A DNA stretch of 52,432 nucleotides, taken from assembly GCF_003334315.1 (NCBI RefSeq), contig NZ_QOWR01000029.1, one strand, 5' to 3'. Of this stretch, positions 17,657 to 19,619 are shown one piece after another. This DNA comes from Escherichia coli. Its GTDB lineage: Bacteria; Pseudomonadota; Gammaproteobacteria; Enterobacterales; Enterobacteriaceae. Both the position numbers and the translations under genes were made by a program. Below the pieces are notes generated by a model that worked only from the letters and a program-made list of their open reading frames with translations, was not told where the DNA came from and did not search any database. How positions within the stretch are numbered: position 1 is the first letter of the stretch; each line of letters opens with the position of its first letter.

Positions 17657-17693
17657 AAACCCTCGCCGCCTGACGGTGAGGGTTTTCTTTTGG
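17657..17693 (+). terminator. rho-independent terminator / possible attenuator between rna and rnk
   Basis: aaaccctcgccgcctgacggtgagggttttcttttggg hairpin plus T-run about 45 bp upstream of the rnk start. Coordinates approximate. Confidence 0.65.
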
Positions 17694-17739: not shown

Positions 17740-18150
17740 ATGTCCAGACCAACTATCATCATTAACGACCTGGATGCCGAACGCATCGATATTCTGCTGG
17801 AGCAACCCGCCTATGCTGGTTTGCCAATCGCCGACGCGTTAAACGCAGAGTTGGATCGCGCCCAAATGTGTTCGCCAGAAGAGATGCCACACGACGTGGT
17901 GACAATGAACAGCCGGGTTAAATTCCGCAATCTTAGCGATGGCGAAGTGCGTGTGCGCACGCTGGTGTATCCGGCAAAAATGACCGATAGCAATACTCAG
18001 CTTTCCGTTATGGCTCCGGTAGGTGCCGCACTGCTGGGGCTGCGCGTTGGCGATTCCATTCACTGGGAACTTCCGGGCGGCGTTGCAACCCACCTTGAAG
18101 TGCTGGAACTCGAATACCAGCCAGAAGCTGCTGGCGACTACCTGCTTTAA
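17740..18150 (+). CDS. rnk: regulator of nucleoside diphosphate kinase (GreA/GreB-like fold)
   Basis: 136-aa [30 protein letters not shown]... recognised as Rnk. Confidence 0.92.
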
Positions 18151-18380
18151 TCCCATCTGCACAAGCGATAACTCGCTTTGCCCAGAGGATGCACTCGCAT
18201 CCTCTTTACGCAAAATCAGCAATTTTTCCTGGTTCTCACTGTTCACTTTTGCTGCAAAATTATTCCGTTTCGTTTGTGGGAATAACCATGGCAGAAGCAT
18301 TTTACATCCTGATAGGATTTCTGATTATGGCGGCGATTATCGTCATGGCTGTCCTTTACCTCGAAAACCACTCCTGACGA

Positions 18381-19619
18381 TCATATTGTTCCCCCCGGCA
18401 TCGCATTCACTAGACCTGAAACCGCCTTCTGCGCCGCCTCTGCGCTTTGTGCACCGGGTACCAGAATCACCTTACGGCACTCCTCTTCACGTTTTTCGAA
18501 AATCTCATATCCCCGGGCGGCCTCTTCAAACGGCATATAGTGGGTAACAATTTCTTCTGGTTTCAGTAATCCTTTCTCAATTAACGGTAATAATTCTCCC
18601 AGCCATGCGTGAACGTGGGTCTGTCCCATTTTAAACGACAACCCTTTATCAAAGGCGTCGCCAAACAGGAAACCGTGAATAAATCCAGCGTAGACGCCCG
18701 GTACGCTAACAATGCCGCCACGCCTGACCGCCGCAATACACTGACGCAACGCTTTACCGCTGCTGCCCTCCAGTTTCAGGTTAGTCAGCACCGTTTCCGT
18801 GGTGCTGCCTTTCGCTTCAAAACCGACGGCGTCTATTACTGCATCCACGCCCCGGTGACCTGCCGTTTGTTCAATAATTGACTGTGCCGGATCGCTGTCT
18901 TCATCAAAATTAATCGGGATCGCGCCGTAGCGGTCGGCGGCGAAATGCAAGCGGTAGGGATGATGATCAACAACAAAAATCTGTTCCGCACCGAGCAACC
19001 GTGCACAGGCGATTGTCAACAATCCCACAGGACCAGCACCATAGACTGCAACGCTTGAACCTTGTTGGATCTGCGCATTTTTTGCTGCCTGCCATGCCGT
19101 TGGCAGAATATCAGAAAGGAAAAGCGCTTTATCATCTGAAAGCAAAGGCGGTACTTTAAACGGCCCCACATTCCCTTTAGGGACGCGGACATATTCCGCC
19201 TGCCCACCAGGAACGCCGCCATACAGGTGACTATAACCAAACAATGCCGCGGGAGCTGGTATCTGTTTTTTATTGAGCGCAGCGCCTTTACCCGCATTGG
19301 TATTTTCGCAGGCGGCATATTGCTGTAATCGACAGAAAAAACAGTCGCCACAAGCAATGACAAACGGAATTACCACCCGGTCGCCTTTTTGCAAATTTTT
19401 TACGTCCTTTCCGGTTTCAACGACTTCCCCCATAAATTCATGACCAAAAATATCGCCATGTTTAACCTGGGGTATTTTGCCTCGATAAAGATGGAGGTCA
19501 GAGCCACAGATCGCCGTTGCCGTAATACGCAGAATAATATCATCTGCCTGTTCAATGCCCGGATCGGGAACATTTTCTACCTGAACGTGATGTGGGCCGT
19601 GATAAGTCAATGCTTTCAT
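18381..19619 (-). CDS. ybdR: zinc-dependent alcohol dehydrogenase-family oxidoreductase
   Basis: 412-aa ORF with MDR-family motifs ([20 protein letters not shown] Rossmann motif); recognised as YbdR. Confidence 0.9.

Follow-up and report, generated by a model that had tools for sequence, protein, structure and literature searches.

The window (the whole 52,432-nt stretch of Escherichia coli DNA analyzed here) carries rnk, encoding a nucleoside diphosphate kinase regulator, at 17740..18150 on the plus strand, identified by its ORF and by the RefSeq annotation of the identical region, and, in convergent orientation, ybdR, encoding a zinc-dependent alcohol dehydrogenase, at 18381..19619 on the minus strand (ORF and annotation). 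Upstream of rnk, Rfam placed the known cis-regulatory element rnk_leader (RF01771, 17586-17694, plus strand, 124.9 bits against a gathering score of 50), the 3′ hairpin of which, at 17657-17685, was also flagged as terminator-like. A plus-strand ORF of 62 amino acids (18189-18377) lies between rnk and ybdR, and its internal ATG at 18288 opens a frame of 29 codons plus TGA (18288..18377, plus strand) whose product, by translation, is MAEAFYILIGFLIMAAIIVMAVLYLENHS. The frame ends at 18377, leaving a gap of 3 nt to the minus-strand ybdR ORF, which runs from 18381. The first-pass annotation had proposed this internal start, this product and this distance from the ybdR stop, all of which are borne out by the ORF list, the translation and the coordinates.

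The 29-codon frame is almost certainly yldA, a real coding gene. In RefSeq, the MG1655 yldA product (WP_000796528.1) is the identical protein in the same rnk/ybdR setting, and the NCBIfam equivalog model NF041476 'small membrane protein YldA' matched it at 57.9 bits (E 7e-16; cutoff 45) from end to end, with YldA residues 1-29 aligned to profile positions 1-29; the UTI89-type allele described below scored 55.0 bits against the same model. UniRef names the exact sequence Protein YldA (YLDA_ECOLI, Swiss-Prot), present on at least 1000 contigs, and the sequence is that printed in Table 1 of VanOrsdel et al. 2018 (Proteomics 18:1700064, PMC6001520), a paper that, like RefSeq, places the start at 18288. 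The gene is therefore already known, being named, annotated by pipeline and supported experimentally. The only incorrect element of the first-pass annotation was its belief that no gene is annotated here, and its treatment of the ORF as speculative and new is not supported, because yldA is annotated and was detected by SPA tagging in 2018. Its description of a small single-pass membrane protein agrees with the RefSeq annotation of yldA, the NF041476 score and the YLDA_ECOLI entry; a reader given nothing but the sequence could thus identify a real gene of 29 codons by its hydrophobicity and context.

A megablast search with positions 18100-18500 matched 5,423 of 5,426 complete E. coli genomes. 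The gene is annotated, between rnk and ybdR, in all 20 sampled full-length rows of the K-12 type, and in 24 of 25 sampled rows of the UTI89 type; in the window, MG1655, UTI89 and 34 species it is placed on the rnk strand, 3′ of rnk and ahead of either ybdR or uspG. Some UTI89-type YldA records carry misleading names ('archaellin', 'DUF2921 family protein'), and some are N-terminally extended calls of 51 or 33 amino acids, the kind of annotation noise that very short genes typically attract. Over 401 nt compared, the sole difference between the window and MG1655 is at 18411 (T in the window, C in MG1655), inside the 3′ end of ybdR, and this base change is probably the cause of a one-amino-acid difference in YbdR (99.76% identity); strains 510016 and LF4-1 match the window exactly over the same length.

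Codon-level conservation and the two E. coli haplotypes

We searched 80 Rnk-centred loci, one genome per species, with a YldA profile and found yldA in 34 of them, always on the rnk strand and 130-311 nt past the rnk stop, in the genera Escherichia, Citrobacter, Enterobacter, Lelliottia, Leclercia, Pseudenterobacter, Kosakonia and Phytobacter. It was not found next to rnk in 46 of the 80 species, Salmonella and Kluyvera included, and is for this reason dispensable. The species loci together with the window gave 35 distinct nucleotide sequences, every one of which holds an ATG-initiated frame of 29 codons plus a stop with zero indels. Over these 35 sequences, column entropy at codon positions 1, 2 and 3 was 0.66, 0.48 and 1.17, and the mean pN/pS was 0.39. 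The yldA frame was open in 35 of 35, the other five frames in 3, 9, 22, 7 and 0. Between the E. coli and E. albertii representatives there are five substitutions, all third-position and all synonymous, and within Escherichia 30 of 33 pairwise differences fall at third positions. Mean ungapped identity was 0.61 over the first half of the ORF and 0.75 over the second, compared with 0.43-0.52 upstream and 0.31 downstream. The protein, with the consensus M.EIL.ITL.FLI..AIIV.AVLYLERHW, has invariant residues at M1, E3, A21, V22 and E26 and at least 90% conservation at I7, A16, V19, L23, Y24 and L25. These alignments indicate that the 29-codon frame is under purifying selection in at least seven enterobacterial genera, with or without ybdR.

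Conservation with synonymous-biased substitution, named by the first-pass annotation as a check on its candidate, is what the 35 indel-free orthologues display, their variation falling mostly at third codon positions. The related matter of frame-disrupting indels came out in two parts, as none occurs among the 35 distinct orthologues, whereas one of 45 sampled E. coli rows is broken. In that row, from E. coli HS-02 (NZ_CP172818.1; locus region 1599-1700), the yldA ORF is destroyed and nothing is annotated in its place; several insertions of 1-5 nt are accompanied by a 3′ deletion of ~50 nt between yldA and uspG. It is the only broken case sampled, and the disruption could be either real decay or an assembly indel error.

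In roughly a third of E. coli genomes, including UTI89 and CFT073, the match to the query stops at the rnk hairpin and ybdR is missing; 3,601 genomes are of the K-12 type and ~1,816 of the UTI89 type. The UTI89-type yldA is annotated as a 29-amino-acid protein, MSEALGITAFYIFIAAIIVAAVLYFEQRW (WP_001287360.1), which is 48% identical to K-12 YldA, and the gene, co-directional with uspG, ends ~125 nt short of it. The two haplotypes diverge over the whole rnk-uspG spacer, from ~18209, past the hairpin, to ~19835, before the uspG start; the region compared was 3109-3406 of locus L002. Between the two alleles pS is 0.81 and pN 0.37, synonymous sites being saturated, and the tails read ENHS in the K-12 type and EQRW in the B2/UTI89 type. 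The UTI89-type haplotype also occurs in E. albertii, in another Escherichia species and in the GTDB E. coli representative. The K-12 protein resembles the YldA of the Citrobacter amalonaticus/sedlakii type (MNETFSILLGFFIMAAIIVGAVLYLENHW). This pattern points either to import of the K-12 haplotype or to a polymorphism of long standing.

Presence and absence were scored at the 80 species loci (region 2911-3700 of each) and at the reference loci of MG1655 and UTI89. yldA occurs without ybdR in 22 loci, both genes occur in 13, ybdR alone in 10, among them Salmonella enterica subsp. arizonae and diarizonae, and neither in 34, among them Kluyvera, many Kosakonia and the Citrobacter freundii group. 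As all four combinations exist, yldA is not a by-product of the 3′ end of ybdR, and it is not a leader that uspG requires. Each of the two genes is gained and lost without regard to the other, and the content of the rnk-uspG gap varies as a mosaic among Enterobacteriaceae.

Expression signals, synthesis and predicted topology

The first-pass annotation had placed the ORF 3′ of a terminator-like hairpin of rnk, and RNAfold located this element at 18184..18205 on the plus strand, downstream of the rnk stop codon (18148-18150), as a 9-bp stem formed by AGAGGATGC (18184-18192) and GCATCCTCT (18197-18205) around the loop ACTC, followed by TTTAC. By pattern count, the exact stem GAGGATGC/GCATCCTC is present in 65 of the 80 rnk loci with 40 different loops, and most of the remaining loci have a G-U wobble variant of it; because 31 of the 65 are without yldA, the hairpin belongs to rnk and not to yldA. 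The stem of 8-9 bp is essentially invariant across genera, which is unusual sequence conservation for a terminator stem. With a T-run (TTTCCG or TTTAC) of only 3 nt, the hairpin drew no call from a terminator scanner; read-through into yldA is therefore plausible, and the rnk 3′ hairpin is probably leaky.

A weak Shine-Dalgarno-like GTGGGA lies at 18276..18281 on the plus strand, 6-7 nt 5′ of the ATG, and includes, at 18276-18280, the purine-rich gtggg that had been reported about 7 nt upstream. Most orthologous loci have a G-rich block (GGGGA, GGGA or GGAA) 6-8 nt before the ATG, and mean identity is 0.52 at positions −20 to −1 compared with 0.43 further upstream, consistent with GTGGGA being a putative ribosome-binding site. 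A promoter scan found no sigma-70-like promoter upstream of yldA, the nearest match lying inside the ORF and within chance expectation, and Rfam returned no RNA family in the rnk-ybdR spacer. Expression would probably come from read-through of the weak rnk hairpin or from a promoter in the 80-nt spacer, and in K-12-type genomes the yldA transcript overlaps the convergent ybdR transcript. As an excludon, ybdR-yldA is listed among 165 convergent pairs whose transcripts overlapped in at least 50% of RNA-seq samples (ExcludonFinder Table 1, NAR 2025, PMC12288877).

Loci of the Enterobacter/Lelliottia type carry, in the 40 nt 5′ of yldA, a direct repeat CTTAATC(C)...CTTAATC(T) spaced by about one helical turn and then GTTTTGGTGCCGCGGGGACGGTC-ATG (examples are L059, at 3011-3031, L047, L049 and L058), and the K-12 type has a single degenerate copy, AATTATTCCG, at 18258-18270 of the window. 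The repeat may serve as a promoter or be bound by a regulator. yldA also appears in a table of fluoride-affected genes, among the entries ahead of the heading 'Downregulated genes (Cluster 5)' (PMC10100675).

Synthesis of the protein has been reported. VanOrsdel et al. 2018 tagged 80 short ORFs of the MG1655 chromosome with SPA at their 3′ ends and detected 36 of the 80 by anti-FLAG immunoblot in LB at exponential and stationary phase; YldA is among the detected proteins (PMC6001520 Table 1, section 3.2), so the chromosomal epitope tagging put forward by the first-pass annotation had already been published with a positive result. The same study does not name YldA among the 13 proteins that a tetracycline ribosome-profiling screen had also picked up, mass spectrometry detected none of the new small proteins, and YldA was observed as an epitope-tagged fusion only (PMC6001520). 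On the published SPA-tag immunoblot of this tagged fusion, YldA accumulates in E. coli K-12 in LB, and the codon-level constraint described above lends indirect support to its synthesis.

The best 19-residue Kyte-Doolittle segment of YldA scores 2.97, predicting one transmembrane helix, and ranks first among the 312 ATG-to-stop peptides of 25-50 amino acids in the six frames of the window, most of the next-ranked peptides being fragments from the C-terminal part of long ORFs or out-of-frame overlaps. Residues ~4-25 form the predicted helix, and no fractionation data on YldA were found in the literature searched. We lean towards an N-out/C-in topology, in which the short acidic N-terminus (M-x-E3) would point towards the periplasm and the 4-residue tail (E26-R/Q/N-H/R-W), usually basic, towards the cytoplasm; the positive-inside argument is weak for the K-12 allele, because its tail, ENHS, is without Arg or Lys.

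Relationship to YoaI, rival readings and a possible role

Outside its own family, YldA resembles YoaI, a 34-amino-acid inner-membrane protein described by the equivalog model NF041475. The K-12 and UTI89 alleles scored 22.5 and 28.3 bits against this model (E 8.7e-5 and 1.4e-6), both below its cutoff of 45, and the reciprocal match of YoaI to the YldA model gave E 0.035. BLASTP of single YldA and YoaI sequences returned no alignment, the similarity being visible at profile level only. When our own YldA profile was run over six frames of ~0.5 Mb, K-12 yoaI, at 18.2 bits, was the only non-YldA match above 7.4 bits. With a profile of 36 YldA sequences YoaI scored 19.5 bits, a value reached by none of 5000 full shuffles (maximum 12.5) and by none of 5000 shuffles of the helix core with both glutamates fixed (maximum 18.1). 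Comparison of the YldA profile with an alignment of 17 YoaI family representatives by hhalign gave a probability of 96.7%, E 4e-10 and a score of about 39.3-39.5 over 27 columns, with YldA 2-28 on YoaI 7-33. Column permutation served as a control because transmembrane profiles can match by composition alone. Permuting all columns gave 8.8 ± 2.2 (maximum 15.5) and permuting the core only 13.2 ± 3.0 (maximum 22.5), with 0 of 300 reaching 39.3 in each case, and the reversed alignment scored 12.3. Since the controls fall far below the observed score, the similarity is position-specific, and on these profile comparisons the YldA and YoaI families are likely homologous.

Like YldA, YoaI has an acidic residue before a single transmembrane helix and a 4-residue tail that starts with an invariant Glu followed by Arg or Lys, and the two share the skeleton E.L.I[TS]..F.......V.[AS]VL.LE[RK]. 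The invariant residues among the 17 aligned YoaI sequences are M1, E8, L10, I12, F16, S26, V27 and E31. YoaI binds and activates the sensor kinase EnvZ, and its invariant residues are reported as Ser26, Val27 and Glu31 (Vellappan et al., PMC11429745); Glu31 sits in the 4-residue cytoplasmic tail, and neither the E31A nor the E31Q variant binds EnvZ or activates omrB (PMC11429745). The hhalign/HMM register sets A21, V22 and E26 of YldA, all three invariant in that family, on S26, V27 and E31 of YoaI, so that two of the three match and Ser is replaced by Ala. By contrast, YldA lies at a different locus, has an N-terminus shorter by five residues that is without MNDQMF, carries Ala21 in place of the invariant Ser26, and has conserved Tyr24 and Trp29 of its own. 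Because it scores below the cutoff, is without MNDQMF and has Ala for Ser26, YldA is not a YoaI orthologue, and the latter two differences mean that a shared partner is not implied.

Four other readings of the locus have to be weighed against a genuine membrane-protein gene. The frame might be a chance open hydrophobic stretch in the rnk/ybdR 3′ untranslated region, with the published band reflecting adventitious translation of the tagged construct. Short ORFs are indeed common (52 of at least 20 amino acids in 3 kb), the Shine-Dalgarno is weak, no promoter was found upstream, and the tetracycline Ribo-seq screen and mass spectrometry both missed YldA (PMC6001520). A chance stretch, however, would have to have remained at exactly 29 codons with zero indels in 35 of 35 orthologues, with its variation concentrated at third positions, with all five E. 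coli-E. albertii differences synonymous, with better conservation than either flank and with persistence where ybdR is absent, and it would also have to rank first in hydrophobicity among 312 peptides; we regard this reading as extremely improbable. Still less credible is that the real gene is another ORF, either the 62-amino-acid frame from ATG 18189 or a minus-strand 42-amino-acid GTG ORF (18243-18371), both of which are present in the window. ATG 18189 falls within the 5′ arm of the conserved rnk hairpin, which argues against the longer start, and the stretch 5′ of 18288 is poorly conserved (identity 0.43) and wholly different between the E. coli haplotypes; in the reverse direction the three frames are open in just 22, 7 and 0 of 35 sequences, compared with 35 of 35 for yldA, and both RefSeq and the 2018 paper (PMC6001520) start at 18288.

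The other two readings accept the frame and reassign its role. YldA is short and very hydrophobic, and the overlap reported for the convergent ybdR and yldA transcripts (PMC12288877) would fit a type I toxin-like, membrane-damaging peptide held in check by the antisense ybdR 3′ transcript. The type I toxins Hok, Ldr, Ibs, TisB and ShoB are likewise small, hydrophobic, single-helix peptides that are sometimes overlapped by antisense transcripts. Unlike them, yldA is single-copy and syntenic, not repeated, its tagged product accumulates in unstressed LB cultures (PMC6001520), and it usually has no convergent overlap, most yldA loci being without ybdR and hence without a convergent gene (22 versus 13). 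No known toxin family appears among the NCBIfam matches, no Rfam family overlaps the locus, and the closest relative, YoaI, is a signaling modulator (PMC11429745), which together make a toxin very unlikely. A cis-acting leader peptide or upstream ORF for uspG, with a functionless peptide, is comparably improbable. It draws on the co-directional order of rnk, yldA and uspG and on the 110-250 nt that separate yldA from uspG where ybdR is absent; against it, residues are conserved beyond what mere translation would call for (M1, E3, A21, V22 and E26 being invariant), yldA is intact in 13 species in which a 1.2-kb opposite-strand ybdR stands between it and uspG, and uspG directly follows rnk without yldA in 34 species. 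The best explanation overall, which we hold with high confidence, is that yldA is a genuine gene for a 29-residue single-pass inner-membrane protein.

For such an inner-membrane protein, the resemblance to YoaI suggests a mechanism, which we offer tentatively. YldA would be a shorter paralogue of YoaI that uses its helix and its invariant juxtamembrane Glu26 to dock onto a larger membrane protein and tune that partner's activity, a sensor histidine kinase being a plausible target. That YldA modulates a sensor kinase is possible, though we would not expect it; the more specific proposal, that it is a truncated YoaI paralogue using Glu26 (the counterpart of YoaI Glu31) to bind and tune EnvZ or another sensor histidine kinase, is somewhat more doubtful. 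Small peptides that bind histidine kinases directly include MgrB and SafA (PhoQ), SamT/YdgU (RstB) and MzrA (EnvZ) (PMC13425233). Like YldA they fall in the size class of 27-65 amino acids and have a single helix, but none shows sequence similarity to YldA in an NCBIfam scan; the parallel is thus a functional analogy only, and as such it makes the proposed mechanism plausible. SamT (NAR 2026) was also considered as a renamed YldA and rejected, SamT being YdgU. A PDB search returned no relative of YldA, and the searchable literature yielded no phenotype or partner for it and no paper linking it with YoaI. The paralogy, with the experiment it suggests, is the only possibly new point here.

The homology with YoaI, including the glutamate required for EnvZ binding, makes a role for YldA directly and cheaply testable, and the two divergent alleles, one found with ybdR and the other without it, provide a natural comparison across E. 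coli. If the proposed mechanism is true, the ENHS- and EQRW-tailed alleles might differ in signaling output between phylogroups, and YldA would be a second member of a family of small peptides wiring two-component systems together in Enterobacteriaceae.
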